Origin: Candidatus Dojkabacteria bacterium
GTDB lineage: Bacteria; Patescibacteriota; Dojkabacteria; J137
Length of the DNA: 64,000 nucleotides
NCBI GenBank assembly: GCA_040006935.1
Contig: JBDTVZ010000001.1
Span: forward strand, 18,218 to 82,217
Reading direction: 5' to 3'
The notes beneath the pieces were generated by a model. That model did no database searches, was not told where the DNA came from, and saw nothing but the letters and a program-made list of their open reading frames with translations. This document shows positions 9,263-63,543 of the stretch, in pieces. Numbering within the stretch: position 1 is the first letter of the stretch; the number at the start of each line of letters is the position of its first letter. A program made the position numbers and the translations under genes.

Positions 9263-10327
9263 ATGAAAACTTGGCAACTTCTAAAACAAAACCCTGAGTT
9301 ATTCGAAAGATATTTTGTAAAAGAATATATAATAAAAGCCTGCAGAAAATTCTTCGAGAATAAAAATTATCATGAGCTTGAAAGCCCATTGTTAACTCCC
9401 TACTTACCTCAAGAAAGGTACATGGACCCAATGAGAGTCGATTTAGAATTGAAGGGACAGAAATTGAAAAAAGAAGTCTATATCACACCAACAACAGAAA
9501 GATATAATAAAGTTCTATTATCAGCTGGGTTTGGAGAGCATTTTGTAATTACAAAAGTTGCCAGAGATTTAGAGGACATTAGTCCAAATCATGGACCAGA
9601 ATTTACAATGTTGGAATGGTATCACCTAGATGCAAATTATAAAGACATGATGGATGATACTGAAGATTTAATAATAAGCATCTTAGATTATTTAAAAAAA
9701 CATTCAAAATTAGATAAATTCTCAAACGGTTATAAATTAACTTTTCAAGGGCAAGAAATAGATTTTTCAAAAGGTTGGGATAGACTTTCAGTTAGTGACG
9801 CTTTAGAAAAATTTGCAGGATTAAAATTAGAAAGTATTCAAACTTTGGAGCAAATTAAAGAAGCAGCAATTAAAAAAGGACATACTGTGGAAGGTGTGGA
9901 AGATTGGCAAGCTTTGTTTGAGCTTATTTTTATAACTGATATTGAACCTAATTTATCTAAAACAAAACCTACTTTCATTTATAATTATCCAAAAATTTTA
10001 GGACCTTTGACAAAACCAAATGTGGAAAACCCTTTAGTTTGTGAAAAGGTTGAGTTGTATATTGCAGGTAAGGAAATTGCTAATGGATATACAGAATTAA
10101 CCGATGGCAATCTTTTAGAACAAAATTTTAAAGAGGAAGAAGGAGCAAGGAAAAAATTAGGAAAAGACTCAATAACATTTGATAATGATTTAGTAGATGC
10201 TGTGAAATCTGGAATGCCAGAGGTTGGAGGAGTGGGAATGGGATTAGATAGATTGGCAATGATATTTACGGATGCAAAAAATATTGCAGAAGTAAATTTC
10301 TTTCCTGCGACGGAATGGTTTGAATAA
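9263..10327 (+). CDS. epmA: EF-P lysine lysyltransferase (PoxA/GenX)
   Basis: 354 aa class II LysRS-like catalytic core without an anticodon-binding domain; HGPEFTMLEWY, KPTFIYNYP, VELYIAGKEIANGYTELTD and GMGLDRL align with E. coli EpmA motifs. Confidence 0.85.
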   Translation: MKTWQLLKQNPELFERYFVKEYIIKACRKFFENKNYHELESPLLTPYLPQERYMDPMRVDLELKGQKLKKEVYITPTTERYNKVLLSAGFGEHFVITKVARDLEDISPNHGPEFTMLEWYHLDANYKDMMDDTEDLIISILDYLKKHSKLDKFSNGYKLTFQGQEIDFSKGWDRLSVSDALEKFAGLKLESIQTLEQIKEAAIKKGHTVEGVEDWQALFELIFITDIEPNLSKTKPTFIYNYPKILGPLTKPNVENPLVCEKVELYIAGKEIANGYTELTDGNLLEQNFKEEEGARKKLGKDSITFDNDLVDAVKSGMPEVGGVGMGLDRLAMIFTDAKNIAEVNFFPATEWFE

Positions 10328-12222: not shown

Positions 12223-12591
12223 TTATTTAAGTCTTTTGATTAGTGTAACTATCATTTTAGATATTTCAATCATATCATTTAAAAGTTCTTCGTATTGTTT
12301 CTCATTGAGGTAGTTTATTTTGAAAGAAATCAATGTTTGTGTTTCCAATTCTGAGAGTGAACCTAATGAAATCCTTAAGAAGTTTATGAAATCTTTAGTA
12401 GTTCTTCTGGATCCTTCCGCAATATTTGAAGGAATCGAAACAGAGGATCTTCTTAATTGGTTTGTAATTCCGTAAACTTCTTTTGCAGGAAAATTTTCTG
12501 TATATTGATAAATTTTTACAGATAAATTAATACTTTTTTTCCAAATAGATAAATCTTTATATGAGGATATTTTGTTTTCCATACTATTCAC
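12223..12591 (-). CDS. four-helix-bundle protein (TIGR02436, '23S rRNA intervening-sequence protein' / bAvd-like)
   Basis: 122 aa; QLRRSSVSIPSNIAEGSRRTTKDFINFLRISLGSLSELETQ is the family signature. Confidence 0.8.
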   Translation of the reverse strand: MNSMENKISSYKDLSIWKKSINLSVKIYQYTENFPAKEVYGITNQLRRSSVSIPSNIAEGSRRTTKDFINFLRISLGSLSELETQTLISFKINYLNEKQYEELLNDMIEISKMIVTLIKRLK

Positions 12592-31500: not shown

Positions 31501-33941
31501 CTCAAATCCTTGAAACAATAATAGGCTTTAAGATCGAAGGTTTAGATCTAGCTAAGAACTTTGTTGTATTTGGAATGATAATAAACTTTGCAAATAACTT
31601 ACGCGAATTAAAGAACAAAAGGTCTAAAGACTCTCAAGAAGAAATAAATATTGCTATAACTGAACTGCAGAATAAAATAAATAGAATTAAATCTGGCGAA
31701 TTAACAGAAGAAGAAATGCAATTTGAAATGTCTAATGAAAATGTATTGAAGATTTTAATGCACATGACCTCCGGAACTTTACCCAAAGAATATCTAGTAT
31801 TTACAATATTGATGTTGATTACTTCTGGTGTTGAAATTGCTGGAGTTAGAAACGTTTTAAAACTTGATCAAATTATAAAAAACCAAAGAGGAGATGATAT
31901 TGGAGTTCCGTATTTAAAGTATAGAGAGGAAATACTTGAAGTAAAAGCCACAGGAAATGTGATGGCACTACAAGAAGTTATTATAAAAAACGTAAGCATG
32001 TTAATCAACTACATGAGAAATTTTCATAATTACGAGGATTACTCCGAAGATTTTTTAGTAATGTGTAAATTATTGAACCTTAAAGAAGGTGAGTTCTCTA
32101 CCAACTGTTTTGGTATAGGGCTAATTTATCAAGCCATACTTGACTTAATGATTGGTGATATTTGTGAGATTAATTATGCAACTCTCCATCACGAATTAGG
32201 TAATGATATTGAAGACTGGTTTAAAAATCTGGGTGAAATAGTTATGGCGGGTCATGCTGTATTCATTATTAAACTTCCACTTATAGATGGAGAGGAAAAT
32301 AAATATATCATTGGAGATCCACTAAGTGTGATTAACAGCTTAGCTCAAAAAAATAAAAGAAAACCTTTAGACAAACATCATAATTGCATGGTTGTAAAGG
32401 AGTCCGAACTTATGCTAGACAATGAGATTAATTCTGTTCTTGAAAATACAAAATTCGTTACTATAGATCCTAATAAAAAAATCCGAATAGTTCAGAAAGA
32501 TAATAAAGAAATACAAATGAAGATAGATCCTAATGATGTTTATCAAGTATATAAAGACAGGAATTCTATTTTAACCTATGCAATGATTAGTTCCTTCAGA
32601 GATTTAAATGGCTACTTAACAACCATAGCGCCAGATGAAGGTGAAGTATTAATGGATATGATTACAGATTCAAAATATAAAGGAGATAGAAACAAAGCAT
32701 TTGAGAAGTATATGCTTTTATATAATAGATATTCAGGATTTGAATATAGATCTACAAACTCTAATCAAGTAATAGCATCGAATATAATATTATTAAATTT
32801 TGCTCTTGAAAATGATTATTATATTGAAGCTTTGTTCCTGGCCAATGTAAATAAAATAAAATTAGCCAAACTATATCCAGACAAAGACGACTACGATGAA
32901 TCTTTAATTTTCGATACGCAAAAAGCATTTATACTTACAAAAATAGCCAATCTCGATGAGACAGAAATCCTAAAATTAATTGAAGATAAAAAATATCTTT
33001 TAAGAAAAGAAGATATTACACTTATCTGGGAAAATGTCTCCTTTATAAATTTAACATTGCGTTTATTTAATGAAACAAAAGAGGATCAAAAAAGAACTCT
33101 AAAATTACTATCTTCTGAGTCACTTTACTATTTGATTTTTGATCCACTAAGATACAATAATATCCAGGAAATGAAAGACTTATGTAAAGAGATATTAAAA
33201 GTTGCTTTGGAAAATGATTATTTACCATATTCAGCTTATATTATAGAAAAACTAGTTAAGTTAAGTCCCGAAGACGAAACTCTGAAATTAGTAGAAGATA
33301 AGATTATAAAATTCATTGCTAAAACCGATAACTATATAATACTTACACAACTAAATCCACATTTAATTTTCTCAAAATTTATAGACAAAATTCATAAAGT
33401 TTTAGAAGTTAGTTTTGAGATACCAACTATCCAATCAATTTTAAACATATTGAATGGAGTGAAGGATGATAAAGTTATTGATGATCAATACGAAAGTCTT
33501 CACAAAGTATTAAGTAGTAATCACACTGCACTTGATAGAGCTGCTTATCGACATAAAGTTGAAGAAGAAAAAAGAATAGTTGCAGCTGTAGAGGCAAACA
33601 CTCATAGAATTGAGGAGATAAATAATCAAGTAAAAACTGAAGTGAGGTCAGGAGGGCAATCCTACCAATCCCTGCATCAAGAAGAAAAACCCCTTGAACT
33701 TGGAGACAACTATATAAAAATAACTGAAGAGGCTGTTTTCGGATCGATTGATCTACTCGTGAGTAAATATGGTGAACTCTCAGGAGACATAATGGCTCTA
33801 TTTCTTCGAGGAGCTGATGAAACAGTAATTCGTCTAGCAGAGAATAATTTGAGGAAGAAAGGAATATTACTTCCATCACCCGAAAATGCAGCTAAAAGGT
33901 TACAAGGACAAAATCTCCCATTGTTACAATCGAATTCTTAA
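28506..33941 (+). CDS. giant protein (1811 aa), no hydrophobic segments recognised
   Basis: Uninterrupted 5.4 kb ORF; its stop overlaps the stop of the convergent VirB4-like gene by 4 nt. Confidence 0.8.
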   Translation: MQYDEIKQTQNNNLTEIQRERELKAAQLRAQNASTILNKKINRSSFSNSAKEVKPFDYLERLECSMTLDRVDSERNGTNINTQIINCDYSTEIDSKGREIIKMTVPHRLDFLALNLNPGSVFIFDRSNYRLLSIEQKDQQKVVNSVEVWPHVEILSIDKILFTFSDLLNKEKIVAFESLENNVMRLKKGPFDGFPNKIYFQKYNLENPIFIEDYDEIKKAYHAPGQGSFIDVDYNMAIKAFNQASNILETEDRTADFQYPEVLRLFSKLKIAFAKDLIPNENPHDTVFELRLRNELNIDGVHIYAGAVMKIDVNDPEFFTIKYPPQNGVQIEFIEINGTKLYAPGEILCRNTSEDLQITSINGGQLENMGSERVIKIIKANNGFIGLVANDEVIKFTKDHKVLTLLSNVDPSVQILISDIMKNRYFLHDIYSDNYLEGAIELVSNHTGSLATIIFEDEQPGNIIIPNYPNIHPSLHGLAIGQFDRLILDKKGEFAIFGVATERYDMHFRGVWYERIERIFINFRTGEVRFRCDSYFEGGKRYGQTKYSENTYIIVDNLGLKQTGDGIFSEVENNVPKGDDYKDHISRTLKIKEIRIGDMRQLNEDRIDITASFDSIVLNNQENPTLHNWIYAQAPFGSIVNFNSKNSIIESIEVPYDTYIKSGGIRASLGSSFKISGIRKVLFEEDSQNFPLDVKELKGEITITLNNKIYRAKDISVNSLGLKLDKFPLITWEVIYNGATELPDELLVENNSVNIPTKNEILYLANRLTVQVNNRKPEDDFDLEQNVNSLIGLTRWLYESANKLGGPFNLAEWVTIYKPLLYYYYNDPEAVILLIMGFIPNSNGNIDPIDYMFLYATYLEIFKQRYPEVESELILLLSSLNPDLKFIYKNEIKDIISNFEILEDENKQHFLDELDSINMDTPSHIPVPVSHSQVEGFKADQFSIEKGFLKFNEEPKAIDLLQRIGNLRELSTSSELDKQIEIIKENGSRIDMNVVGQISQILETIIGFKIEGLDLAKNFVVFGMIINFANNLRELKNKRSKDSQEEINIAITELQNKINRIKSGELTEEEMQFEMSNENVLKILMHMTSGTLPKEYLVFTILMLITSGVEIAGVRNVLKLDQIIKNQRGDDIGVPYLKYREEILEVKATGNVMALQEVIIKNVSMLINYMRNFHNYEDYSEDFLVMCKLLNLKEGEFSTNCFGIGLIYQAILDLMIGDICEINYATLHHELGNDIEDWFKNLGEIVMAGHAVFIIKLPLIDGEENKYIIGDPLSVINSLAQKNKRKPLDKHHNCMVVKESELMLDNEINSVLENTKFVTIDPNKKIRIVQKDNKEIQMKIDPNDVYQVYKDRNSILTYAMISSFRDLNGYLTTIAPDEGEVLMDMITDSKYKGDRNKAFEKYMLLYNRYSGFEYRSTNSNQVIASNIILLNFALENDYYIEALFLANVNKIKLAKLYPDKDDYDESLIFDTQKAFILTKIANLDETEILKLIEDKKYLLRKEDITLIWENVSFINLTLRLFNETKEDQKRTLKLLSSESLYYLIFDPLRYNNIQEMKDLCKEILKVALENDYLPYSAYIIEKLVKLSPEDETLKLVEDKIIKFIAKTDNYIILTQLNPHLIFSKFIDKIHKVLEVSFEIPTIQSILNILNGVKDDKVIDDQYESLHKVLSSNHTALDRAAYRHKVEEEKRIVAAVEANTHRIEEINNQVKTEVRSGGQSYQSLHQEEKPLELGDNYIKITEEAVFGSIDLLVSKYGELSGDIMALFLRGADETVIRLAENNLRKKGILLPSPENAAKRLQGQNLPLLQSNS

Positions 33942-35911
33942 ACTTGCGGTGGAACAGCTGAAACTTCTGTAGTAACAGGTTGTTCAATAGGCTGTGCTTG
34001 AGGAGTTACATTATCTGTTGGTAGAACTGTTCCTGGTTGTTCTAATGGTGGAGCCGAAGAAATATCTAACTGATCTCCTTCTTCATTTTCTACTTTCTGT
34101 TGAAGTAACTCATTAGGGTTTGTAGTTATCAAATTATGCTCATTTTGACTTGCAACAATTTGTATAGCAACATGATTAGCCCCAGCAAAAAATAATCCTT
34201 GTCCAATTCCTGCAGACATTAAAAAAGACTTTTCACCATCTGTAAGATAGAATACTTTCTTTAATTTATCTATCGCAGCTGGTGCTTGCTTCAATAATAT
34301 CTGCATGGATGAGTTATTAATTATTGCTTTACCATAATCTGAAGCTAAGAAGTCATCAACATCTTGTGTAATAGTTGTTAGACCTAATGCATATTTTCTA
34401 GCTCTCTTAGCAATTGAGTATACAAACTTGGCAGCATCTTCGTATTGCATCATAATCCAAGCTTCATCAATTATTAATAATCTTTTCCTCTTATCTCTTT
34501 TAATCTTGGTCCAAATGTAATCAAGCATTACATACATGGCCATTGGTCTTAAATCATCAGCTAAATCACGAATTGAAAATACTGTAAATGTATTGTGAAT
34601 GTTAACCGTGGATTTCCTATCAAACACACCAGATGCGGAACCTTTTAAATATTTTTCTAATCTACGAGCCATTGAATGGGATTCATCTTCCGACATTGCA
34701 TTTAAAATCTTATACAAATCTTCTAACAAAGGAGCTTCGTTTGAATGTGTTGATGGATCGGGTGTGATACCTTTTTCTTTGTACGTTAATATTAAAGCTC
34801 TATCTAAAATTGCTGCTTCCTCTGCAGTTACTGTTCCACCCAACATCATTCTAATTAATCCAGAGAGAGTTAAAATTTTAAATCGGAGTTCATCTTCATC
34901 AGCGTTAAATATCCCAGATAATTCAAAGGGATTCAATTTCTGAGCACCGTCTTGCGAGAATGATATATATTCTCCACCAACTGCATCACATAATCTATCA
35001 AATTCTTTTTCTGGGTCTATAATAATAATGTCAATTCCAAGCATTAAGGACCTCACAGCTTCCAATTTAACTGCATAGGATTTACCAGCTCCGGATGTAG
35101 CCAAAACGACTGAGTTAGCATTAGGAAGTGAAAATCTATCGAAAATAACTAAAGAATTATTATGAAGATTAACCCCATATAAAACTCCTTTATCCATTGT
35201 TAACTCACTACTGACGAATGGGAAAGTTGTAGCAATGGCAGTAGTATCCAAGTTTCTGGTCATATTTATTTTATCAAGACCATATGGAATTGTGCTTTGG
35301 AAACATTCTTCTTGTTGAAGTGTAGCAACTTTAATAATAATTCCAATCGTTGCCATTGTGCTCTCCAGATTCTTTGAAATTTTATCTAACTCTTCCATAG
35401 TATCTGCATGCAATGTTACGTACAAGGCATATTGGAAGAATTTTTCGTTCCCAGCGGCAAGCTGTTCTTGCAAAGTTAATGCATCTTTAAGTTGTACTGC
35501 AACAATAGGATCTCCTTGTCTACCTGCTTCAATTTCAATATTTATTGTTGCCTGAAACTCTGCAATTTTTCTTTTTAAGATTTTTAATATTTCACCAGTT
35601 TCAAAAGGATAATAATAAGTGCTGATGTCTACGGGATATTCAAAGTTAATTAATGGTTCTAACCAACTAGGAGAAACAACACTAGGAAAGCCGATAGCAA
35701 AATATGATCTAAAATACTTATTCCCTATTATTAAATTACTGAAGTTAACCTCAATGGCACTTGGTGCAATAATGTCTTTAACATCAATTAATCCTTGAGC
35801 AAATTTCTGAATAGATTGGTTCTCTCGAGCCAAAGCAGCAGCTTCTTGAGGGTTTATAGGTTTTGTACCTTTTTTAGGTTTTGCGTCTGGTATTAATCCG
35901 AATAAAGCCAT
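33938..35911 (-). CDS. VirB4/TrbE/CagE-like type IV secretion ATPase (C-terminal 657 aa)
   Basis: Walker A LATSGAGKSYAV, Walker B LLIIDEAW; the overall VirB4-family arrangement; a C-terminal ~60 aa Pro/Gln-rich tail. Confidence 0.85.
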   Translation of the reverse strand: MALFGLIPDAKPKKGTKPINPQEAAALARENQSIQKFAQGLIDVKDIIAPSAIEVNFSNLIIGNKYFRSYFAIGFPSVVSPSWLEPLINFEYPVDISTYYYPFETGEILKILKRKIAEFQATINIEIEAGRQGDPIVAVQLKDALTLQEQLAAGNEKFFQYALYVTLHADTMEELDKISKNLESTMATIGIIIKVATLQQEECFQSTIPYGLDKINMTRNLDTTAIATTFPFVSSELTMDKGVLYGVNLHNNSLVIFDRFSLPNANSVVLATSGAGKSYAVKLEAVRSLMLGIDIIIIDPEKEFDRLCDAVGGEYISFSQDGAQKLNPFELSGIFNADEDELRFKILTLSGLIRMMLGGTVTAEEAAILDRALILTYKEKGITPDPSTHSNEAPLLEDLYKILNAMSEDESHSMARRLEKYLKGSASGVFDRKSTVNIHNTFTVFSIRDLADDLRPMAMYVMLDYIWTKIKRDKRKRLLIIDEAWIMMQYEDAAKFVYSIAKRARKYALGLTTITQDVDDFLASDYGKAIINNSSMQILLKQAPAAIDKLKKVFYLTDGEKSFLMSAGIGQGLFFAGANHVAIQIVASQNEHNLITTNPNELLQQKVENEEGDQLDISSAPPLEQPGTVLPTDNVTPQAQPIEQPVTTEVSAVPPQV

Positions 35912-52200: not shown

Positions 52201-53220
52201 ATGGACAAAAATGAACAAAAAAATATCAAATATTTCCAGTTAGCTTCTATAATATTTAGTATTATCTTTTTCATATTAGTTTTTCAAGCAATTTACCCGC
52301 ACTACATATTTGGTGTTTGTGACTATACTCGGTGGTTGACAATTCCGATGGTTCTTTTTGCCATACTAAGTTTCTTAACATTTTTACCTAACTTTATTAT
52401 CCGATTTAAACAAAGATCACAAACTAAATTATTTTTAGTTAATCTAATCTTCATTTTGCTTACAGTTTCTATACTGTTTATTTCAATTTTAAGTAACCTT
52501 TGTGGTGGTTCTACAGGTATAACTGGAGCCACTGGTTTAAACGGGACAATTGGAGTATCAGGGAATATTGGTGGAACGGGTGAACAAGGAAAACCAGGAT
52601 CAACTGGATCAAAAGGGATTTCTGGGCAAACTGGTACCCAGGGTAACTCCGGTGAAGCAGGTGCAGTTGGAGCTGGTGGAACACCTGGATCTGTAGGATC
52701 TACTGGAAGCAATGGGATACCCGGAACAAACGGTTTAGTTGGAGGTTTAGGGTTACAAGGGCCACCAGGTCCACAGGGAGATCCAGGAGCTGCTGGTACT
52801 CCAGGAACAAGTGCTAATATTAACTATGGGTACATTTATAATACTGGTGCCCAATCAGTAGCAATTGATGCTCCTATTCTTTTCAGCTCGTCCGGACCAA
52901 TGGTTGGAGTCACACATACTGCTGGAACATCTACAATTACTATTACTAATGCTGGAGTATATTCAATTAATTTTTCAGTATCAGGGGCAGAAGCTAATCA
53001 ATTTACTGTATATATAAATGGCACACCATCTCCTACAACTACTTATGGCTCAGCAGCTGGTATCCAACAGAATAATGGACAAGCAATTCTTATACTCGGT
53101 GCTGGTGATGTTTTAACTGTTGTAAATCATTCTTCTGCAGCTGCTGTAACTCTTACAGCTCTAGTTGGAGGGACACAATCAACAGTAAGTGCTTCAGTAC
53201 TTATTAGACGATTAGATTAA
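52201..53220 (+). CDS. collagen-like triple-helix repeat protein with a BclA/C1q-like C-terminal domain
   Basis: 339 aa; three N-terminal TM helices, ~100 residues of G-X-Y repeats (GATGLNGTIGVSGNIGGTGEQGKPGSTG...GPPGPQGDPGAAGTPG), then a ~130-aa beta-rich domain (ITITNAGVYSINFSVS...TVYINGTP...AILILGAGDVLTVVN) typical of BclA/TNF-like trimerisation domains. Confidence 0.8.
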   Translation: MDKNEQKNIKYFQLASIIFSIIFFILVFQAIYPHYIFGVCDYTRWLTIPMVLFAILSFLTFLPNFIIRFKQRSQTKLFLVNLIFILLTVSILFISILSNLCGGSTGITGATGLNGTIGVSGNIGGTGEQGKPGSTGSKGISGQTGTQGNSGEAGAVGAGGTPGSVGSTGSNGIPGTNGLVGGLGLQGPPGPQGDPGAAGTPGTSANINYGYIYNTGAQSVAIDAPILFSSSGPMVGVTHTAGTSTITITNAGVYSINFSVSGAEANQFTVYINGTPSPTTTYGSAAGIQQNNGQAILILGAGDVLTVVNHSSAAAVTLTALVGGTQSTVSASVLIRRLD

Positions 53221-54241: not shown

Positions 54242-54592
54242 TTAGTAAGTTAACATTTTATTAATCAATCCAGACAGCATCTTCCCTATTATAACTAATG
54301 AACTATAAATATTGCTATACTCGATTTCGTTTATTTTATCTTCGATCTTTAGAAGCTTTATTATTGCTACACATTCCTGCGTGGAACCACGAGCTATTAT
54401 ATAAAAGTTCTTCTTATCTTTACTACTATATTTACCAGCTCCCTCTGCAATATTTAACAAAATACTTGAAGACGCACGATATAACTGGTCTCTTAGGCTA
54501 TTATGTATCAATCTATTTTTTAGAAAAGGTTGTAGAGAAGTTATTAAGTCTTCAGTTTTCAAATACACAGGAAATTTTTCGAAATCAAACAT
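54242..54592 (-). CDS. four-helix-bundle protein (TIGR02436 / bAvd-like), second copy
   Basis: 116 aa; LNIAEGAGKYSSKDKKNFYIIARGSTQEC family signature. Confidence 0.8.
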   Translation of the reverse strand: MFDFEKFPVYLKTEDLITSLQPFLKNRLIHNSLRDQLYRASSSILLNIAEGAGKYSSKDKKNFYIIARGSTQECVAIIKLLKIEDKINEIEYSNIYSSLVIIGKMLSGLINKMLTY

Positions 54593-54725: not shown

Positions 54726-54969
54726 AGCAGGTAGGGGGAATCGAACCCCCCTCATCAGTTTGCCTGCCCGCCTAAGGTAAAGTCAGGTTGCAATAAAGAA
54801 TGTGAATACAGCGGGTAGAGGGAATCGAACCCTCCTCTTCAGTTTGGAAAACTGACATAATAACCGATATACTATACCCGCTGTATTCACACTAATTATT
54901 TTTAATACCAGTTAAGTTTACTATGGCAGGCGGGGGAAACTGGCATAATAACCGATATACTATACCTGC
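54726..54969 (-). tRNA. tRNA-Gly(CCC)-like gene split in the anticodon loop: 5' exon 54969-54934, 173-nt insert 54933-54761, 3' exon 54760-54726 (minus strand)
   Basis: Minus-strand halves: GCAGGTA-TA-GTAT-ATCGGTTA-TTAT-G-CCAGT-TTCCC | insert | AA-ACTGA-TGAG-GGGGG-TTCGATT-CCCCC-TACCTGC. The acceptor pairs perfectly (GCAGGTA/TACCTGC). The discriminator is U. The T-arm is canonical. The anticodon stem has a C27.A43 mismatch. Confidence 0.5.
54810..54881 (-). tRNA. tRNA-Gly(UCC), complete, inside the insert of the split tRNA
   Basis: Minus strand GCGGGTA-TA-GTAT-ATCGGTTA-TTAT-G-TCAGT-TTTCCAA-ACTGA-AGAG-GAGGG-TTCGATT-CCCTC-TACCCGC-T. The anticodon is UCC and the discriminator is U73, as expected for Gly. 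The D-arm is identical to that of the outer tRNA. Leader TGTGAATACA and trailer TGTATTCACA form a perfect 10-bp extension of the acceptor helix. Confidence 0.8.
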
Positions 54970-55588
54970 ATTAATTACTCCACAATTATAGCAAGTAACT
55001 CAAAATTTTCAAGAATAACAATAATGGCTATGCTACTCATAAACCGACATTTTGAAAAGGCCGTGCCACCTCCTATTCAGTTTTCCGTCAAACTTTAGCG
55101 ACACATCGAATTATCGTTACCAGGTAAGCACTTAGATGTATTCTGATGATTGACAAAAGTATATTTCTGTTATATAATTAAATAGTTAAAAATCAATTAC
55201 AGATCGCGTGTTTACAAGACGGGATGGTCAAGGGAAAGTACGTGAGTCCCAAAACAACCACAAAACTCCCCAACCCTAGTTAATAGTTAAAAATTAATAG
55301 TTAAAAGAAGGAAATATCTTCTTGTTCAATTTCAATAAATGGTTATTAATAGTGCACTTAACTCTTCACTATTAAATCTTAACTATTTATGGGCATTGAA
55401 CCATCTTATTTTCGTAAGAATTTAAGACTCATGCTTAATTCTACTTTATTGTAGAAGAACCTTAAAAACTCAAAAGAAGAAATTCTTTTGGGTTTCGTGA
55501 TTAACAATACACATGCTAACGCTGTGTGTTAATTGCAAAAACCCAATAGAAAGCTTAATAATTCGATTTAACTCTAGTTTACAACTGG

Positions 55589-55625
55589 ACGCATATTGCC
55601 TATAAAATTTGTAGGTAATATGCGT
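55589..55625. promoter_or_regulatory. 37-bp near-perfect palindrome upstream of the island ORF (candidate operator)
   Basis: ACGCATATTGCCTA-TAAAATTT-GTAGGTAATATGCGT: 9-bp perfect arms plus a 4/5 extension, about 80 nt upstream of the ATG at 55707. Confidence 0.35.
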
Positions 55626-55706
55626 ATTCAGTTGTAACTAGGGTGCACGTAGATGCAACTGAAGAAAGAAGTCCCGATACGCTAGGGCAATATAGGAGGG
55701 TCTTAA

Positions 55707-56696
55707 ATGACCGCAACTACAACAAGCCCTGTAACCCGGGCTTCCAATTCGGGTTGGTTCTGGATATATTTGATACTTTTTATGTTCGCTTGTATTGGTT
55801 TAAGCGGTCTCGCGCTACGATACACCAATGGCAACGGAGCAATCAAGAACAGTGCAGCAAGCGTAAGCTTGACAATGCAGCCACTGAACACTAACTACGG
55901 AGCCGGTGGTGTAAATGATTCACCAACGGCAACGCCTTATTGGCAACCTTCGACTATTTCGACGCAGACAGCAGTTCCAAACACATTGATTAACGACTCG
56001 ACATTCGGTTGGGTATATCAAAGTGATGTAACATGTATTCGCAATACATTTGAAGCAATGCATGTTACTCGCATCGTCAACATCGGACAGTCTGTCGGAA
56101 CTGACGGTTCGCCTTCACCAACCCTTGCTTTAATTGGCGTAATCAGCGAAGGCTCTTTTGTGTCTGAATTTGACAACACCAATGGACGGTCATTGACCTT
56201 TCGAGGTGGCGAGGAAGAACAAATCACTCCTACAAGTCCGACACAAATTATCCTCGTAATACTCAATCAAAATGTGGTCAATTTCGCAAATTTCTACTCA
56301 CAACCCTTGCAAGGGGTTGTTGCTGAAGGCGGAGTACCGCTGCTGTCTGTGGGTATAGAAATTAATCAAGGTCAAGGGAATGTTAGCGAAAATCTCTACT
56401 GGGGTAATTCTCTTATTGGTTACGTTAACGGACCTGTAACAATTGTACAGGATATTGGATCAGTATTCACCAACTACACTATGTCGGAGCTGGGCAATCA
56501 CTTGACTTTCAATGACTTTTCTCCTGATAACCTCAGAGGAATCGGTATACCTGTTGAAATGCTTGGAAATGACTGCTGGTCAATCAGCCTAGCTGTCACA
56601 GTCCCAACAAATCAAATACTCAGCTTTGGTGTGGGAACTTTTCAGTATCCACACTATACAGCTATCGCAGACTACCTGATGGTTCACAGCCAGTAA
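55707..56696 (+). CDS. membrane-anchored Ser/Thr/Gly/Asn-rich protein of foreign composition
   Basis: 329 aa; one N-terminal TM helix (WFWIYLILFMFACIGLSGLAL). Codon and amino-acid usage are clearly different from neighbours: GC about 45% against about 30%, and almost no Lys/Glu. No recognised domain. Confidence 0.7.
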   Translation: MTATTTSPVTRASNSGWFWIYLILFMFACIGLSGLALRYTNGNGAIKNSAASVSLTMQPLNTNYGAGGVNDSPTATPYWQPSTISTQTAVPNTLINDSTFGWVYQSDVTCIRNTFEAMHVTRIVNIGQSVGTDGSPSPTLALIGVISEGSFVSEFDNTNGRSLTFRGGEEEQITPTSPTQIILVILNQNVVNFANFYSQPLQGVVAEGGVPLLSVGIEINQGQGNVSENLYWGNSLIGYVNGPVTIVQDIGSVFTNYTMSELGNHLTFNDFSPDNLRGIGIPVEMLGNDCWSISLAVTVPTNQILSFGVGTFQYPHYTAIADYLMVHSQ

Positions 56697-56728
56697 ATCG
56701 CCATGTTAAGCTTCTATTGGCTCTTTGC

Positions 56729-56768
56729 CCCGACCCTCAAAAAGTCGGGGCAAATCCCTTTTTTTTCA
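56729..56768 (+). terminator. intrinsic terminator
   Basis: GCCCCGAC-cctcaaaaa-GTCGGGGC-aaatccc-TTTTTTTT, 30 nt after the island ORF stop. Confidence 0.75.
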
Positions 56769-56841
56769 GATCAAATTTAATAAGATAACACATTGTCTTA
56801 ATAAATTTGCTTTGTATACAAATTTATAGAACAATATATTT

Positions 56842-58764
56842 ATGTTTAGATACAGAATACTAACAACTCTCATACAAATCGCAGTACTTTCTCTAATTCT
56901 TTTTTTAGGGTTTACTAATCCAAATTATTCTACAAATTACTTTATTATTGGCTACATTTGGCTAATCCTATTCACTTTCCCAAGCTTACTTTCTAAAATT
57001 ATTTTTAATAAGTCTTATTTTAGTTTAACTTCCGCACTTTGCTTTCTTTATTATCCAATTACTTATCTATTTGTATTTTTTGTAGCAAAGGTCTTTGCAA
57101 TTGATATAAATATATTAATACTTACATTGAGTATATTAGTAGTTCTACTTTGGAACCTTGCATTAATTAGTATTACTTTTACTCAAAAGGCTCATGAAAC
57201 CAGGCAAATAATCACGTTTGCACTTGGAGTACTAATTTTGAGTGTAACGTTATTTGGATTTTTAACAATTGCAGGTAGGTCTGTAAATTCAGTAGTAGCA
57301 AACGATTACCTTGTACACAAAACAGTTGTCTTCCCCATGGCTAATAGCGCAGAAACACTTTGCTTTCTACCAAGCCAGTGTTCAAATTTATTTCTATTAG
57401 ATTCCTATACAAGCTTTTACCATACTTTCATAATAATTCCTCTTGGAGGATTTAAATTTGATCCTATAATCTCAAGTTATATCTTAGACATTGTTTTTTC
57501 ATCTTTTATTATAATTTTAAGCTACATAACAGCCAGAAAGTTTGGCCTAAAAGTCAATTATGCAATTTTTGCAGGATTAATTTCACTAGTGGTTTTCGAT
57601 TCTGGAGCATTTACCGCCACAATATTCATTCCTCAAACTATGGCCTTTATGCTTACATTGTTTATTATTAACTCTCAAAAGCTAAATTTAAAATCACTCC
57701 TAATATCACTTATAGTGCTAATTCCAATACATTTTATAATGGGAATTTATTGTTTTGGAATTATGCTGCTTTACTATTTAATTGTAGAAAAAGAAATTTT
57801 AGAAAAATTTGAAATTAGAAAAAGATTACTAATAATACTGTCACTTTCAGCTACTTTATTAGTTTTATTGCTCAGTATTTCAGGCTTTGGAATAGAAAAG
57901 ATCTTTCAAGCAGAAGAAATTAAAAAACTTGGGTTTGCTACAAACTACTACTTTCCTGACAATTTAAAATTTCTATTCGAAATGGTCGGTTTAGGGAGTT
58001 TTATTTTTATAGCATGTCTTATTTATTACTATATCAAGGGAAAAGAAGATAAATATAATAATTTCCTAATAACAATAATTACTTGTGAACTGGTAGCATT
58101 TTTACTTGCACCAATATATGCAAATAAGTTTTTAATTGGCATTGGTGTATTTTTAGCAATTTTTATAATCAAAATTATTGCTAACCTAAAACAAAATGAA
58201 ATTAATAAATTATTTTATTGTTTTTATACCCTAATTTTAATCGCAATAAGTTTTGTTACACAATATAGATTCTTTCTTCTATTTTATACTCAGAGTAATG
58301 GTGAAACTTCGGCAATAGTTCAGAAAGACTTACCTATGGTTAACTTTGTAAAAAATAGCAAATTAAATTGCTTTTATGTTTCAGACCCACAAACACAACT
58401 CACAATCAGTGCTTTAGGCGATAAAATAACAGCAAGTGGGCACTATATGAGCTTAGACTCTCGAAGAGTATTATTTGAATTAATAAAATCTCCAAACGAT
58501 TTAAGGCTAAGTAAATTATATTCATTAGAAGAGTTCAAAGGAGTACGAACAGATATCTGCTTTGTTTACTCTGCAAGGTTAAAGGAATACGTAGCAAATG
58601 ATAACCAAAACTGGACGTTTAATATCTACAACTATATTGTAGATTATCAAAGAGAGATTGACCCAACAGACAATATTGAGAGGTATATGGTAAGTAAAAA
58701 TATCCACAGTGTCTACAATGACAAATACTATTCAATATACTTACTTCCTAAAAGTAGTAACTAA
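56842..58764 (+). CDS. polytopic membrane protein, probably a GT-C-type (ArnT/PMT-like) glycosyltransferase or polymerase
   Basis: 640 aa; at least 12 TM helices then a soluble C-terminal domain; next to GT4, GT2 (polyprenyl-phosphate sugar synthase-like) and a flippase. Confidence 0.55.
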   Translation: MFRYRILTTLIQIAVLSLILFLGFTNPNYSTNYFIIGYIWLILFTFPSLLSKIIFNKSYFSLTSALCFLYYPITYLFVFFVAKVFAIDINILILTLSILVVLLWNLALISITFTQKAHETRQIITFALGVLILSVTLFGFLTIAGRSVNSVVANDYLVHKTVVFPMANSAETLCFLPSQCSNLFLLDSYTSFYHTFIIIPLGGFKFDPIISSYILDIVFSSFIIILSYITARKFGLKVNYAIFAGLISLVVFDSGAFTATIFIPQTMAFMLTLFIINSQKLNLKSLLISLIVLIPIHFIMGIYCFGIMLLYYLIVEKEILEKFEIRKRLLIILSLSATLLVLLLSISGFGIEKIFQAEEIKKLGFATNYYFPDNLKFLFEMVGLGSFIFIACLIYYYIKGKEDKYNNFLITIITCELVAFLLAPIYANKFLIGIGVFLAIFIIKIIANLKQNEINKLFYCFYTLILIAISFVTQYRFFLLFYTQSNGETSAIVQKDLPMVNFVKNSKLNCFYVSDPQTQLTISALGDKITASGHYMSLDSRRVLFELIKSPNDLRLSKLYSLEEFKGVRTDICFVYSARLKEYVANDNQNWTFNIYNYIVDYQREIDPTDNIERYMVSKNIHSVYNDKYYSIYLLPKSSN

Positions 58765-59880
58765 CGTATAGTATTGCTCAAAGAGAACTTTATCTGAAAG
58801 CTTTTCAAAAGCCTTAGTCGAAACTTCTTGGTTTAATTTAAAGTTAGTTTTCTCACAAAGTTTAATTGCCTCAGAAACTTTATTAACTAAATCAACAATA
58901 TTTTTTCTTTCAAATACCAAATTATCAATTCCCAAAGTTTTAGCCATTTCAATATTACTTTCAGCATTAGAAAACACTCCTACATTGCCTAAAGCACTAG
59001 CTTCTTGATTAGCAAGAGAAAACCCCTCACTTAGTGAAGAATTGATGAAAATAGAGCTTGTAGAGAGCAAACTAAATACTTCCTCTTGCGGTAACAACCG
59101 ATTCTGAACTGATACATTGGAAGGGTAACTATAATCACCTGGTTTTATTTCAAAATCCCCTTTACCTATTAACTGAAACTTCCAATTTGGATATTTTGTA
59201 CTTAAAATTTCATATGCTTTTGCTACAGTTTCAGGATCCTTCACGATGGATATTCTAGATATGAAAGATATTGTTTTCTCTTTCTTTGTAATATCGTATT
59301 TACTGACTTTATCGCTATTAAAACCTGTATTTATCACAATAACTCTATCTTTAATCTTTGGATGAAGGTTAATTAATATGTTCTTAGTATATTCCGAAAT
59401 TGCAACGACAGCTTTTGCTTTAAATACTATGCTTCCAAATACAAATTTATCTAAAAAAGCCATCAATTTATTTGCACCTCCAGATTTGAAGATATTTGGC
59501 TGAAAACCACTATCAATATAGATGTAATTTATTCTCATTAATACACAAAGTACAAAAGCAATATAACTTGTAGTGAAATGCCTACCATTAATAATTACAA
59601 CTTTATTCTTAGTTTTAAGAAAAAACTTTAAAACAGTAAAAAAGAACTTTAAAGTTACAAATGGATATAACCCTCCAAAAAGCATCTTAGCCCTAATTGA
59701 CATTTTTAAAATCCCATTCTCTTGCCTGGTGTAATTTTCACTTGAACAAAAAATAGCAGTAGTTTTAATATGTGGCTTAGATACTAAAAAACTTAGTAAA
59801 TTATATGCAAAGGTTTCAACACCACCTACATGAGGAAGAAAAAGGTGGGAAATTGAGATTACATTTATTTCTTGTTCCAT
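58741..59880 (-). CDS. glycosyltransferase family 4 (GT-B)
   Basis: 379 aa; the C-terminal EGFSLANQEASALGNVGVFS motif (E.7E-like). Confidence 0.8.
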   Translation of the reverse strand: MEQEINVISISHLFLPHVGGVETFAYNLLSFLVSKPHIKTTAIFCSSENYTRQENGILKMSIRAKMLFGGLYPFVTLKFFFTVLKFFLKTKNKVVIINGRHFTTSYIAFVLCVLMRINYIYIDSGFQPNIFKSGGANKLMAFLDKFVFGSIVFKAKAVVAISEYTKNILINLHPKIKDRVIVINTGFNSDKVSKYDITKKEKTISFISRISIVKDPETVAKAYEILSTKYPNWKFQLIGKGDFEIKPGDYSYPSNVSVQNRLLPQEEVFSLLSTSSIFINSSLSEGFSLANQEASALGNVGVFSNAESNIEMAKTLGIDNLVFERKNIVDLVNKVSEAIKLCEKTNFKLNQEVSTKAFEKLSDKVLFEQYYTLVTTFRK

Positions 59881-59913
59881 AACTTTGTAAAGTAATACAA
59901 TGATATTGTATAC

Positions 59914-60612
59914 TTATGCCTTCAAAGATGCGAATCTATTAGAGATTAACCAGCCTAAGTGACTTAAACCAGTTTTTAGATATTGTTGTTTAGAGTTACC
60001 TTTAGATCTTCTGTTTTGTCTAATTGAATACTCACCCATTTTCAAATCTTTATTTTTTGCAACGTTAATTTTTATTTGAGGGCTTAAGTTCCAATCTCCT
60101 TGAGTTAAATTAAGTTGAGATTTAACCTCTTTTCTAATAAACCACATACCGGAGAGTATGTCGTTAAAGTACTTTCCATAAAGTATAAAGGCAGTGATAT
60201 TAAGCACATAAACTCCTAACTTTTGTATAGCACTAATTTTAGAACCTTTAGCTGGAGGAAGTCTATGGCAATACATAAAGTCGTACTTAGAATCTATAAA
60301 TTTATCCAACATTACGGTTAAATTATCTAACGGGTGTTCTGCATCTCCGTCTATAGAAAGAATTATATCTCCCGTAGCTTTTTCTATACCAGTCATATGG
60401 GCAAAACCATAACCTATTCCATTTAACTCTCTGTCATCTTTGAATGCTTTAAATCCAAGCGATAAGGCTTTCTCATAGGTATCATCTGTAGATCTATTGC
60501 TTACCACAATAATCTCATCTACAAAACTAGGTATAGAAGATTTAATCGTTTCCAGATTATTAGATTCATTCCTACAAGGAATATAGATTGTTACTTTGTT
60601 ATTTCTATACAT
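59914..60612 (-). CDS. glycosyltransferase family 2, polyprenyl-phosphate sugar synthase (DPM1/ArnC-like)
   Basis: 232 aa; IYIPCRNE...VVSNRSTDDT...DGDAEHP (DXD region). Confidence 0.85.
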   Translation of the reverse strand: MYRNNKVTIYIPCRNESNNLETIKSSIPSFVDEIIVVSNRSTDDTYEKALSLGFKAFKDDRELNGIGYGFAHMTGIEKATGDIILSIDGDAEHPLDNLTVMLDKFIDSKYDFMYCHRLPPAKGSKISAIQKLGVYVLNITAFILYGKYFNDILSGMWFIRKEVKSQLNLTQGDWNLSPQIKINVAKNKDLKMGEYSIRQNRRSKGNSKQQYLKTGLSHLGWLISNRFASLKA

Positions 60613-60718
60613 ATGATGCTATTAGTATATACTAATTATATCATAAATAGAGCAAAAACTCAATTTTGAGGAGACCAACAATGCTTTACTGTAGATCCAA
60701 TCGAAGAGATTACTAGAA

Positions 60719-60997
60719 TTATTGTACGCTGCTGACTTCCAGTCCCTTATCTTCTAAACACAATTGATAAAGGTAAGTAGAAGGTTCCGTTCTAGTCACT
60801 CCATTGGCAGTATTAGTTACTGTTGCACTCTTAAAACAGCCGTCAATTGCATCGTTTTTTGTCTTTTGTACTTCAAGAGAGTACGTATCTTGAGCTATTT
60901 TTAGGTAATCTGCTGACCTTATGAATGCAACATAAGCAAGGATACCTATAGCTATAATGAATGCGATTCCTAGTAGAAAATTTATAAATACCTTCAT
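60719..60997 (-). CDS. small membrane-anchored protein
   Basis: 92 aa; N-terminal TM; two Cys. Confidence 0.5.
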   Translation of the reverse strand: MKVFINFLLGIAFIIAIGILAYVAFIRSADYLKIAQDTYSLEVQKTKNDAIDGCFKSATVTNTANGVTRTEPSTYLYQLCLEDKGLEVSSVQ

Positions 60998-61109
60998 AGT
61001 GATAACTTAATAAATATATGATGATTATATATTAAGGATGAATTTATCTCAAATAAAAAGGCGACAATTTATATTGCCGCCTTTTAAATACTTTAGAAGT
61101 TCTGTAAAC

Positions 61110-61388
61110 TTACTTTTTAAGTTTGTTCTTAATATATTTACCGTTTAGTATAAGTACTAAGCCCGCATTGAATGCTGCTCCAATAGCTATTACATCAAAT
61201 GCTCCTATCTGACCGGGATTATCATCTTGAAAAATAATACCAGTATTTGCGCATGTAGTAATACCATATGCTCCAACTGTACAAGTTTGACCACCAGCTG
61301 CTGAAACAGTATTTATATTACTAAATACAAATGTAAATAGGAACATTGATATTGCTACTATTATTAATTTTATTATATTTTTTGTCAT
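61110..61388 (-). CDS. small secreted Cys-containing protein with a C-terminal hydrophobic segment and basic tail (possible sortase substrate or pilin-like)
   Basis: 92 aa; signal peptide ending ...NTVSAAG; C-terminus AIGAAFNAGLVLILNGKYIKNKLKK resembles a cell-wall sorting signal but has no LPXTG. Confidence 0.5.
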   Translation of the reverse strand: MTKNIIKLIIVAISMFLFTFVFSNINTVSAAGGQTCTVGAYGITTCANTGIIFQDDNPGQIGAFDVIAIGAAFNAGLVLILNGKYIKNKLKK

Positions 61389-61456
61389 ATTATTTTTATA
61401 TAAAACTATTGTTTTAATATATAAGCATTATACACTCAATATACCAATTTGTCAAG

Positions 61457-62134
61457 TTATCTAATCAAAGTGGCATAGACAATTATCCTTTCTGGTGAAT
61501 AATAATCTATACATGTGTACATTATTAAGTCTGCTAATTTTGAGACATGATTAGAAGTCTCAATTGCATTAACCTGATACCTATATTGTTTACCATTCCA
61601 ATTTATTGTGACTATTTCTCCACCTTTTAATTGATCGAATTCCGTGAATAAGTTGGCATTTCTCCAATCCCAAGATATGTTATTTTCACCCCATCTATGA
61701 GCTGCGAGAACAATAGGTAGCTCATTATTGTCTGGAGTACCATAATTCGGATCTCTCCAAACACCTGCAGCTAAAGCAGCCTCTTGGTTTGTAGATTCGT
61801 AGATTGTTGTATTTATTTTGATTCCGCTTACTTGTACAGTAGCACCTGTAGTAGTTACCGTATTCCCTACGACAAACTGTAATGGTTTTACCTTAGTTTC
61901 ATTAACAACTGTAGCTGTAAATGGATCTTTAAAGGTATATTTTGGAGTAGGTTTTACATCTGATTGTGCAAAAATAGCTGTTGATAGGATTTTATCTTCT
62001 TTTTGAGCCTCAAAAACATTAGTTTCAGCTTTAGGTGCAAAATTGATAAAAGACAAGAAAGCTATCGGGATTATCATCAGAATAATTCCGATCAAAATAT
62101 TTATATTGGCAAAGGTTTTTAGCACTTTTTTCAT
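61457..62134 (-). CDS. sortase-family transpeptidase
   Basis: 225 aa; N-terminal TM; catalytic His in LAAHR, Cys in LIMYTCID (TLxTC-like), and a C-terminal Arg (RIIVYATLIR). Confidence 0.75.
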   Translation of the reverse strand: MKKVLKTFANINILIGIILMIIPIAFLSFINFAPKAETNVFEAQKEDKILSTAIFAQSDVKPTPKYTFKDPFTATVVNETKVKPLQFVVGNTVTTTGATVQVSGIKINTTIYESTNQEAALAAGVWRDPNYGTPDNNELPIVLAAHRWGENNISWDWRNANLFTEFDQLKGGEIVTINWNGKQYRYQVNAIETSNHVSKLADLIMYTCIDYYSPERIIVYATLIR

Positions 62135-62215
62135 ATACCAATTATATCACAAAACGAAGTGTTTTACGAGGCATCAGGATTGTGGATCATGCTAAGAGTG
62201 ATGTGAGAAGAAGTT

Positions 62216-62288
62216 CCCTCTCCTTTCAAGGAGAGGGCTAGGGTGAGGTCATACCGCCCCAAAACCATGACATACATCTGGGCGGTCC
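62216..62288 (+). repeat. GC-rich two-hairpin intergenic repeat, copy C
   Basis: CCCTCTCC-TTTCAA-GGAGAGGG-CTA-GGGTGAGGTCATACCGCC-loop-GGGCGGTCC; hairpin 2 is identical to copy A. Confidence 0.8.
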
Positions 62289-62313
62289 ATATTTAGATTT
62301 GCTTATTGATTGT

Positions 62314-63543
62314 TTACCGCCTTAACTCTAAATCTCTCAAACTAAATCTTAAGTTTAGTATATTCAAGAATAAGAAAAGTATATTAGCTAGAAGTAACAA
62401 AATCGGAAGTAATGAAATCCCAAATATATTTATTAAAAGTACTGAAAGCACTAGGAACGAAATACTTTGAATTAAAGCAGCATTTCTATATCTATTTTCG
62501 AAACCTAAAGCCATTAAAGCCGATAATATAGGTGAAGTAACAATGTAGATCAAAACACCCCCAAGAATAGGGTAAAAGTACTGTAAGCCATTATCTGCAA
62601 TTTCCTGGTTATAGACAATTCTTAGGGCTAACCCAGCTAGAGGAATACTTAAAAGGAAGATTGCGACACAGAATGCAGATAATATTTTTATATACCTAAA
62701 CATCGACTCAACAAGCTCTTTCATTTTACCCTGCGCAACTAAGTGACTAAATTCCGGTAAGAGTTTCGTTTGTAATATTACGGATAGCACTATTGGTACA
62801 GTTGCCAAAGTACTTACAGATTTATAAATTCCGTTTTCATAATTACCAGCATAGTTGGTCACAAGTATTGAATCCCATTGTCCCATAATCACATAGGCCA
62901 TTATAGAAATTAATACATTTGCTGCAAAAATAACAAAGCGCTTATCGTATTTAGCTTTTGAAAAGTCTATTAGCTTATCTTTAAATAACTTTTGAAGAGG
63001 AATTATTGAGAATAAGAGCCAAGCAAAGGCTCTACTTAATAGGAAAGCATTTATTACATCTGTGATTTTCAAGAAGTATAGAACAAAAGTAAGTCCAATA
63101 AATATTAATGAAGAAATTGTAAAGTAGAGACTGGTTCGAAAATCGTCTCTAAGTCCATTAAAAATGAGAATAAATACGTTGCTCGCAGAAAATATTAGTA
63201 TTAAAGCCATTTGCCAACCATAACCGAAGGAGATTCTATAACCAGTAGCCCAATCAAGTAGTAGAAACAAAACTCCACCAATTAAAACTAGCACAATCTC
63301 TGCATAAACCGAGAACGAAATTCTCTCAACTCTGTCTGTATTTTGAGCAACAAACTTTTGAGCAGCTTCTGGTAAGCCAAAATCCGTTAAAACTCCAACA
63401 ATAGTAATCAAAGCAATAAAGTAATTTAATAATCCTATCTCGTCTGTACGAGCAAATTTACTCAATACAAAAAGAATAATTACGGGACTTGTGCTTGATA
63501 GTACTCGAGAGATTCCGGGAAGAACAGATTTTATAAATTTCAT
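62314..63543 (-). CDS. MOP-superfamily polysaccharide flippase (Wzx-like)
   Basis: 409 aa; ~12 TM helices; length and topology typical of polysaccharide biosynthesis transporters. Confidence 0.7.
   Translation of the reverse strand: MKFIKSVLPGISRVLSSTSPVIILFVLSKFARTDEIGLLNYFIALITIVGVLTDFGLPEAAQKFVAQNTDRVERISFSVYAEIVLVLIGGVLFLLLDWATGYRISFGYGWQMALILIFSASNVFILIFNGLRDDFRTSLYFTISSLIFIGLTFVLYFLKITDVINAFLLSRAFAWLLFSIIPLQKLFKDKLIDFSKAKYDKRFVIFAANVLISIMAYVIMGQWDSILVTNYAGNYENGIYKSVSTLATVPIVLSVILQTKLLPEFSHLVAQGKMKELVESMFRYIKILSAFCVAIFLLSIPLAGLALRIVYNQEIADNGLQYFYPILGGVLIYIVTSPILSALMALGFENRYRNAALIQSISFLVLSVLLINIFGISLLPILLLLANILFLFLNILNLRFSLRDLELRR

Follow-up and report, generated by a model that had tools for sequence, protein, structure and literature searches.

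The 64,000-nucleotide (nt) stretch of Candidatus Dojkabacteria DNA analysed here (contig JBDTVZ010000001.1 of assembly GCA_040006935.1, called "the window" below) carries a GC-rich gene of 329 amino acids (aa), which we call X, and the features around it are listed in Table 1. We consider it reasonably probable that X is a hypervariable surface-protein cassette whose alleles are replaced between conserved flanks in a fixed slot of an envelope gene cluster. An earlier note, made from the letters of this DNA alone, had read X as a horizontally acquired surface-protein cassette; that X behaves as an exchangeable cassette is borne out by the fact that it differs far more than its flanks between close relatives, and a recent foreign insertion is not.

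The relatives of X on which this reading depends were recovered as follows: a word-indexed protein search with X returned only X itself, an exhaustive HMMER scan of 1.8 billion representative proteins gave four true homologues (P0002 to P0005, 33-46% identical), a subsequent profile search added homologue P0009, and scans of genome contigs and of metagenomes yielded one locus each (L005 and L006, respectively). The family is tiny, with about six distinct members over eight contigs. Every recovered homologue lies on an AT-rich contig and has the same neighbour genes wherever neighbours are visible. In L001/L002, L003, L004 and L006 it stands directly upstream of a gene for a 630-640-aa membrane protein, as it does in the window, and this gene is followed on the opposite strand by a glycosyltransferase family 4 (GT4) gene where the contig reaches that far, and in L001 by a family 2 (GT2) gene as well. 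The neighbours in L007 are the same in slightly changed order with a sortase added, and the visible neighbourhood in L008 is the adjacent 105-aa gene only. L006 also keeps the minus-strand tRNA-Gly(UCC), the promoter of X and a leader that can be aligned over most of its extent. The earlier note had named as a refutation of its own reading, and a sign of vertical inheritance, the presence of the same gene at the same place in relatives with similar composition, and that is what was found: the relatives carry the gene at this place with an equally anomalous GC content.

Divergence within the slot is far above that of both flanks in four independent contig pairs, and these include a pair with unrelated genes in the one slot. 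Between L001 and L003 most 100-nt intervals of the 2.5 kb downstream are 96-100% identical (one is at 91%), while successive 100-nt intervals of X are 84, 86, 69, 68, 68, 98 and 72% identical and the N-terminal linker cannot be aligned. Where these two loci encode identical residues, the same codon is used at 122 of 168 positions in X and at 585 of 600 in the neighbour, and the synonymous divergence in X is more than ten times that of the neighbour. Because synonymous sites are raised too, the pattern argues for import of diverged alleles and not for positive selection alone. L007 and L008 are 97-99% identical in the leader, 38-58% in the X coding sequence and 82-93% downstream; L009 and L010 are 57-93% identical in the flanks, and their slots are unalignable and encode unrelated proteins. 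Between the window and L006 the leader is 69-86% identical, positions 55564-56800 are 39-62% and the membrane-protein gene is 48-85%; identity falls from 80% to 39% at 55564 and is back at 85% at 56806-56865. The edges of the divergent zone are those of the GC-rich zone, the left one at or just after a long hairpin and the right one just after the terminator of X. The junctions are the same in independent assemblies from NCBI, JGI and Logan, and an assembly artefact was therefore rejected. A structured RNA within the GC-rich block was likewise rejected, since it is the protein that is conserved there and synonymous sites show no more conservation than chance.

The second line of evidence is base composition. 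The window has a mean GC content of 32.2%, and its 1-kb profile has a maximum of 0.432 at 55501-56500 and is about 0.31 elsewhere. X has a GC content of 0.445 and a third-codon-position GC content (GC3) of 0.409, compared with means of 0.3225 (standard deviation, sd, 0.030) and 0.229 (sd 0.042) for the 54 open reading frames (ORFs) of at least 100 aa in the window, X included, and with 0.32 and 0.23 in its flanks. X is thus about 4 sd above the ORFs of the window in both measures, and the second-highest GC3 is 0.32. Lys and Glu make up 3.6% of its residues (about 15% elsewhere) and Ser, Thr, Gly, Asn and Val 46.5%. The codon shift is chiefly toward C-ending (NNC) codons among two-fold pyrimidine codons, with Leu and Arg codons altered as well. 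Of the GC excess, amino-acid composition accounts for about 0.054 and synonymous codon choice for about 0.071. The windowed GC profile and the codon analysis thus uphold what the earlier note said of the composition, the codon usage and the residue content of this ORF. Its GC-rich region was drawn too wide: the block is real and spans about 55624-56762, together with a short 50%-GC block in the leader at 55216-55275, and the remainder of 54990-55620 is AT-rich, so that the region does not begin near 55000.

The GC content of X is 12-30 points above that of the flanks in every relative (overall 44-62% versus 26-44%). GC and GC3 of X are, respectively, 0.494 and 0.507 in L006 (flank GC 0.25-0.30), 0.577 and 0.667 in L001 (flanks about 0.43 and 0.40), 0.575 and 0.655 in L003 (flanks 0.44 and 0.46), 0.618 and 0.705 in L007 (flanks 0.31-0.36 and 0.20-0.30), and 0.578 and 0.611 in L008 (flanks 0.33 and 0.26). 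More distant loci (L005, L009, L010 and L012) have a membrane protein that is 29-33% identical to that of the window, and the slot, which lies two genes upstream of it, is occupied by other small proteins, secreted or anchored, with a GC content of 0.44-0.51 versus 0.24-0.36. The slot proteins of L010 and L012 share one head domain; the others are unrelated to one another and to X.

How old is this excess? Synonymous sites between the window and L006, the two closest lineages, are saturated (40 identical codons were observed and 49 are expected), and GC3 is high in both. The GC excess is therefore not the relic of one old transfer, whose composition should have decayed at this depth, and lineages that are about 60% diverged in the neighbouring protein still hold an X with a GC3 of 0.4-0.7. 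Repeated import from a GC-rich donor is improbable as the cause, because no family member was found outside the slot context. The best explanation, and in our estimation a fairly probable one, is that the GC excess is a standing property of the slot occupant and not the mark of recent arrival in this genome. Its cause would be either a GC bias linked to recombination or selection that acts on the DNA or mRNA, between which we do not choose.

Two further observations concern GC-rich genes of the slot. The head domain of the GC-rich 196-aa slot protein of L005 (4318-4908) has two AT-rich paralogous copies, 36% and 52% identical, in the neighbouring gene for a 286-aa lipoprotein (2754-3614), and the same fold can thus be encoded at normal composition. 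L001 has a second GC-rich gene (9292-9972; 226 aa, GC3 0.64, with a C-terminus of several transmembrane segments) between the promoter and leader and X; it is without a homologue in the window.

Each X allele carries a transmembrane (TM) anchor, a lipobox or a signal peptide besides the conserved Cys residues described below, and the product of X is very probably, from its sequence, an extracytoplasmic surface protein. The predicted layout is an N-terminal TM anchor (residues ~16-40), a Ser/Thr-rich stalk (~41-100) and a conserved beta-sandwich domain of about 220 aa. The hydrophobic helix at residues 16-40 agrees with the TM helix described in the earlier note, as does the lack of a known domain: X has no match in Pfam, PHROG, NCBIfam or Protein Data Bank (PDB) sequence searches. 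An AlphaFold2 model of X made without an alignment was unusable (pLDDT, the predicted local distance difference test, 36). The domain common to the family, about 210 aa long, has the invariant motifs NGR..T.RGGE.GQ and DNL.G.G.P, Cys290 (X numbering) is invariant, and Cys115 is kept in the four sequences that align there. Anchors differ across the family: the window and L006 have the TM anchor, X of L001 and L003 has a lipobox and Pro/Thr-rich repeats, P0009 also has a lipobox, and P0003 and P0004 have a cleavable signal peptide plus a Pro/Thr-rich tail at the C-terminus. Jelly-roll carbohydrate-binding, MAM and RetS sensor domains are counted among the closest known systems.

The conserved left flank is a promoter and a long leader. 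The promoter is identical in L006 but for one spacer base, similar promoters stand ahead of the GC-rich genes of L005 and L001, and transcription of X probably starts near 55185. The leader blocks are 69-86% identical between the window and L006, while the X proteins share only 46%. Its three hairpins, P1 to P3, show compensatory changes in 7 of 30 pairs over the window, L006, L007 and L008. The segment 55539-55551 can replace the 5' arm of P2 in pairing with the 3' arm (repeats I20 and I21), which may leave room for a structural switch. No Rfam family was found for the leader; only tRNA passes, with nothing credible at E values up to 5. A covariance model of P1-P3 (R1) recovers its four training sequences only, so that the motif is not demonstrated in L001 or the distant clade. 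X itself has a Shine-Dalgarno sequence, AGGAGG, at 55694-55699, 7 nt ahead of its ATG.

Long hairpins of 52-74 nt stand at the equivalent position in the window, L006 (folding free energy, dG, -37.7), L007 and L008 (-30), and their sequences are of three unrelated kinds, one of which L007 and L008 share. The 37-bp palindrome noticed earlier at 55589-55625 is present, as the core of the 74-nt hairpin in this conserved leader (arms 55589-55606 and 55608-55625, 89% complementary) and not as a separate feature. The terminator that was noticed downstream is likewise real (11-bp stem, dG -20, z -3.2), with the correction that its T-run starts 4 nt past the stem; a consensus scan missed it because of its 9-nt loop. 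L006 carries another GC-rich hairpin at the terminator position.

The leader of the window also contains a miniature palindromic repeat element whose arms are TTAATAGTTAA repeats (unit TTAAnAGTTAA). The direct repeats of this motif and its inverted copies near the RNase H gene, both remarked on in the earlier note, were located as four exact copies of TTAATAGTTAA, at 55280 (+), 55294 (+), 1218 (+) and 1265 (-), compared with 0.25 expected; none of 100 shuffles reaches four. Copies with one mismatch are at 55179, 55365 and 55379. A second copy of the element, at 1207-1292 upstream of the RNase H gene, aligns with the first. The element was found neither in L006 nor in any other fetched locus, which makes it a genome-specific insertion into the leader, and it could be an element like a miniature inverted-repeat transposable element (MITE) or a repetitive extragenic palindrome (REP), or an array of binding sites.

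Taken together, X would be a cell-surface protein of Candidatus Dojkabacteria, a lineage within the candidate phyla radiation (CPR), with a membrane anchor (in relatives instead a lipobox or a cleavable signal peptide), a Ser/Thr-rich stalk that is possibly glycosylated by the neighbouring transferases, and a beta-sandwich head. Its transcript would run from the consensus promoter through the conserved, structured leader of about 520 nt to the intrinsic terminator, and its slot would head a conserved cluster of the 630-640-aa membrane protein, GT4, GT2, sortase and flippase. Alleles, or unrelated genes in distant lineages, would be swapped between the leader-to-hairpin flank on one side and the terminator and membrane-protein gene on the other, the likely route being homologous recombination, with phages or host cells exerting a diversifying selection. 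The GC excess would be kept up by a GC bias linked to recombination or by selection.

Several points weigh against this reading. The sample of X alleles and contigs given above is small, and the name Dojkabacteria is on record for the window, L005 and L009 only. Recombination is deduced from the identity profiles of a few contig pairs, and locally raised mutation could look much the same; the 98% block within X and the finding of unrelated genes in a single slot nevertheless favour replacement. We know of no bacterial precedent for GC-biased conversion as large as this would be (up to about 45 points of GC3), and an unsampled GC-rich reservoir may lie behind the GC excess.

The explanation preferred by the earlier note was recent horizontal acquisition, in which a cassette from a GC-richer donor, or phage or integrative and conjugative element (ICE) cargo, entered beside tRNA-Gly and has not yet ameliorated. 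The strong GC and GC3 anomaly with its sharp edges, the adjacent tRNA with duplicated tRNA fragments, and the Arg and Leu codon choices of X, which differ from those of its host, are what such an event would leave. An island inserted beside tRNA-Gly is contradicted by the same slot and neighbours in at least five other lineages and by the tRNA, promoter and leader common to the window and L006, and the saturated synonymous sites relative to the nearest homologue also speak against it. The earlier note saw no integrase, and Pfam scans found no integrase or transposase domain among the 54 ORFs in the 64 kb. The direct repeats of the tRNA 3' end that it proposed to look for were not found either: no tRNA-derived repeat flanks X, and the sole 14-mer match to its right is AT-rich spacer sequence inside the 640-aa gene. 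The 1.8-billion-protein scan gave no donor, tblastn and IMG/VR searches found no relatives of X in phage, plasmid or IMG/VR collections, and a phage receptor-binding or capsid fold was not found (BFVD TM-scores, when normalised by query length, do not exceed 0.23). Nor is a remnant of phage or ICE cargo supported, and we regard recent acquisition in any form as highly improbable. Known tRNA-associated islands, prophage remnants and ICEs resemble the locus in having atypical composition beside a tRNA with partial duplicates; they differ in that here there are no integrase, att repeats or mobility genes and the same site is occupied in relatives. An integron cassette was rejected, as the window has no tyrosine recombinase; no formal search for an attC consensus was made.

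Could X instead be a vertically inherited, very highly expressed S-layer-like protein, its composition set by codon selection and cheap small residues and its divergence by ordinary fast surface evolution? A promoter of perfect consensus, a leader that is long and structured, a strong Shine-Dalgarno sequence and a terminator would suit high expression, and about 40-60% of the GC excess comes from amino-acid composition. In the window most of the synonymous shift favours the NNC codons of Phe, Tyr, Ile, Asn, Asp and His, with little change at four-fold sites, and such a shift is the classic signature of translational selection, which may contribute to the codon pattern of X there. It is insufficient, however, because G-ending codons and four-fold sites are strongly enriched in X of L001, L004/L006 and L007 and because GC3 is not raised in EF-P of the window (0.238) or in ribosomal protein L25 of L001 (0.369, against a background of about 0.40). 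High expression would also leave unexplained the synonymous divergence between L001 and L003 and the unrelated genes in one slot, and on balance we judge it unlikely. Programmed variation within a genome, as at Borrelia vls or Mycoplasma MgPa/P1, where silent copies donate segments and a palindrome would promote conversion, appears very unlikely. Here too the gene of a surface (lipo)protein lies far above its reduced, AT-rich genome in GC content, a large inverted repeat adjoins it that is kept in presence and not in sequence, and alleles are mosaic, as the L001-L003 differences are. The vls cassettes average 49.1% G+C versus about 28.6% for the chromosome, and the inverted repeats at their junction have no consistent length, location or sequence (PMC11499132). 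However, no silent cassette array or partial copy of X was found in the window, L001, L005, L006, L007, L009 or L010, and the GC skew of X is -0.05 to +0.04, compared with about 0.5 in vls (PMC11499132); for these two reasons we do not class the locus as vls-like. The modelled beta-sandwich of X also differs from the helical vls fold, and the variation of X is so far seen only between genomes.

A target of a diversity-generating retroelement (DGR) or of other targeted hypermutation receives almost no weight. DGRs have been reported in CPR genomes, and a gene like those for 23S-rRNA-IVP and bAvd (54242-54592) stands 1.1 kb to the left of X. The window has no reverse transcriptase, however (the RVT_3 match at 797-1204 is the RNase H domain), no template/variable repeat of any part of X was found, the divergence covers the whole gene and not a C-terminal variable region, and there is no adenine-specific bias. 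Distinctly unlikely, in our view, is a dedicated Dojkabacteria mechanism, either programmed gene conversion from donor copies not yet seen or locus-targeted GC-biased recombination or mutagenesis, that would start at the long, sequence-variable palindrome of the leader and keep rewriting the slot gene, with a GC content 12-30 points above the genome as a by-product. Allele replacement between conserved flanks has known parallels in the S-layer slpA cassettes, the variable regions of flagellins and pilins, and O-antigen or capsule loci. These also have a hypervariable gene between conserved flanks, near glycosylation genes, unrelated alleles in one slot, and divergence that greatly exceeds that of the flanks. 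They differ in usually being atypically low in GC, whereas the X alleles are GC-rich whatever the host background, and the X slot is accompanied by a leader that is conserved and structured.

Table 1. Features of the X locus and its surroundings (window coordinates)
Feature	Position	Strand	Basis or remark
tRNA-Gly locus, left boundary of the module	54726-54978	-	ARAGORN and Rfam: one tRNA
Promoter-like site, TTGAAA-16-TG-TATAAT	54985-55012	-	Consensus scan 11/12; just upstream of the tRNA unit; putative function
Sigma-70-type promoter of X, TTGACA-17-TATAAT	55150-55178	+	Consensus scan 12/12
5' leader of X, ~520 nt	55179-55706	+	Conserved blocks 55216-55275 and 55392-55563
Miniature palindromic repeat element, ~110 nt	55277-55389	.	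Inverted repeat I3, 26-nt arms, 85% complementary
Leader hairpins P1, P2 and P3	~55439-55456; 55466-55495; ~55498-55535	+	Common to the window, L006, L007 and L008
Long near-perfect hairpin, 74 nt	55571-55644	+	dG -43.9, z -11; left edge of the variable GC-rich zone
Gene X, 329 aa	55707-56696	+	GC-rich, hypervariable ORF
Intrinsic terminator of X	56724-56766	+	Stem 56724-56734/56744-56754, 9-nt loop, T8 at 56759-66
Polytopic membrane protein, 640 aa	56842-58764	+	Constant right neighbour; normal AT-rich composition
GT4	58741-59880	-	Pfam
GT2	59914-60612	-	Pfam
92-aa protein	60719-60997	-	ORF
92-aa protein with signal peptide and C-terminal TM	61110-61388	-	ORF
Sortase	61457-62134	-	Pfam
Wzx-like flippase	62314-63543	-	Pfam

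To the right of X, the 640-aa membrane protein is 37-64% identical to the neighbours of the X homologues and has no Pfam, NCBIfam or PDB sequence match. Its family has 13 members, and the four that come with a source name or organism title are all Candidatus Dojkabacteria. The envelope gene set that follows it (58741-63543) is also found in L001, L007 and L009-L013. Small proteins of 74-92 aa adjoin the sortase in the window (61110-61388, minus strand), L009 (4113-4337), L010 (400-624) and L005 (3692-3946). Each combines a signal peptide with a short exposed segment, a C-terminal TM segment and a basic tail, and has a motif ending in TG, which reads ...CANTG in the window and IPEDTG or VPVDTG in the relatives; from these features they look like minimal sortase substrates.

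On the left side, what had been called a tRNA cluster does contain tRNA-Gly, in the form of one intact tRNA-Gly(UCC) at 54809-54882 with a half-copy on either side of it, the 5' one at 54934-54978 and the 3' one at 54726-54762; their identity to the intact gene is 84% and 89%, respectively. The arrangement is that of a second tRNA-Gly split in its anticodon loop by a 171-nt insert holding the intact gene. The acceptor strands of the outer halves, GCAGGUA and UACCUGC, are mutually complementary and match the sole intact tRNA-Gly of L006, and the halves also carry the T stem of that tRNA; the outer copy is therefore the orthologue. The whole unit folds (dG -101.5, z -7.75), and the spacers that flank the inner tRNA pair together (dG -35.4, z -5.1). 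ARAGORN calls the joined outer halves a tRNA-Gly with a flawed anticodon stem, and its intron mode does not call the outer tRNA on the locus. A group I intron was rejected, there being no Rfam intron match, and a paper on tRNA introns in Patescibacteria mentions neither Gly nor nested tRNAs. Most simply, the outer tRNA-Gly would be a disrupted gene replaced by its insert; it may also be a processed or split tRNA. The helix at the base of the insert, GCCUGCCA / GGCGGGCA (54763-54773 and 54921-54933), is the same as the base of a leader hairpin in L006 (686-730), which suggests either a hairpin element common to the two or a rearrangement between tRNA and leader; each 8-mer of this helix is present once or twice in the 64 kb.

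Other genes of the window can be mentioned briefly. The ORF at 52201-53220 (+) encodes a protein with collagen repeats, a TM segment at the N-terminus and a C1q-like domain of the BclA C-terminal type; among the PHROGs it matches "collagen like minor tail" best (E 5e-51). Its GC content is 0.384 yet its GC3 is only 0.179; the rise is carried by Gly and Pro codons, and the excess there thus comes from amino-acid composition alone. Two giant ORFs, at 20906-27463 (+; 2185 aa) and 28506-33941 (+; 1811 aa), have no Pfam match and adjoin a TraG/VirB4-like P-loop ATPase gene (33938-35911, minus strand), with which they possibly form a secretion or conjugation-like apparatus. The bAvd-like gene noted above is one of two genes for four-helix-bundle proteins of the 23S-rRNA-intervening-sequence/bAvd type, both on the minus strand; the other is at 12223-12591.

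Targeted full-text searches (Dojkabacteria, hypervariable surface proteins of Patescibacteria, CPR tRNA introns) found no published description of a slot of this kind. CPR bacteria are believed to live attached to other cells, and their attachment and phage-receptor proteins are almost unknown. A slot that always holds a fast-changing and probably exported protein is a concrete candidate for the surface that Dojkabacteria present to hosts or phages, and since its compositional signature alone picks it out, it offers a simple way to find equivalents in other CPR lineages. If a dedicated rewriting mechanism were at work, it would be a CPR counterpart of antigenic-variation systems that had arisen independently. 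The rule that atypical GC content beside a tRNA marks a recent island breaks down at this locus. X is a natural case of a long-lasting GC-rich gene in AT-rich genomes, and it bears on whether AT-biased mutation in bacteria is opposed by selection or by biased gene conversion.

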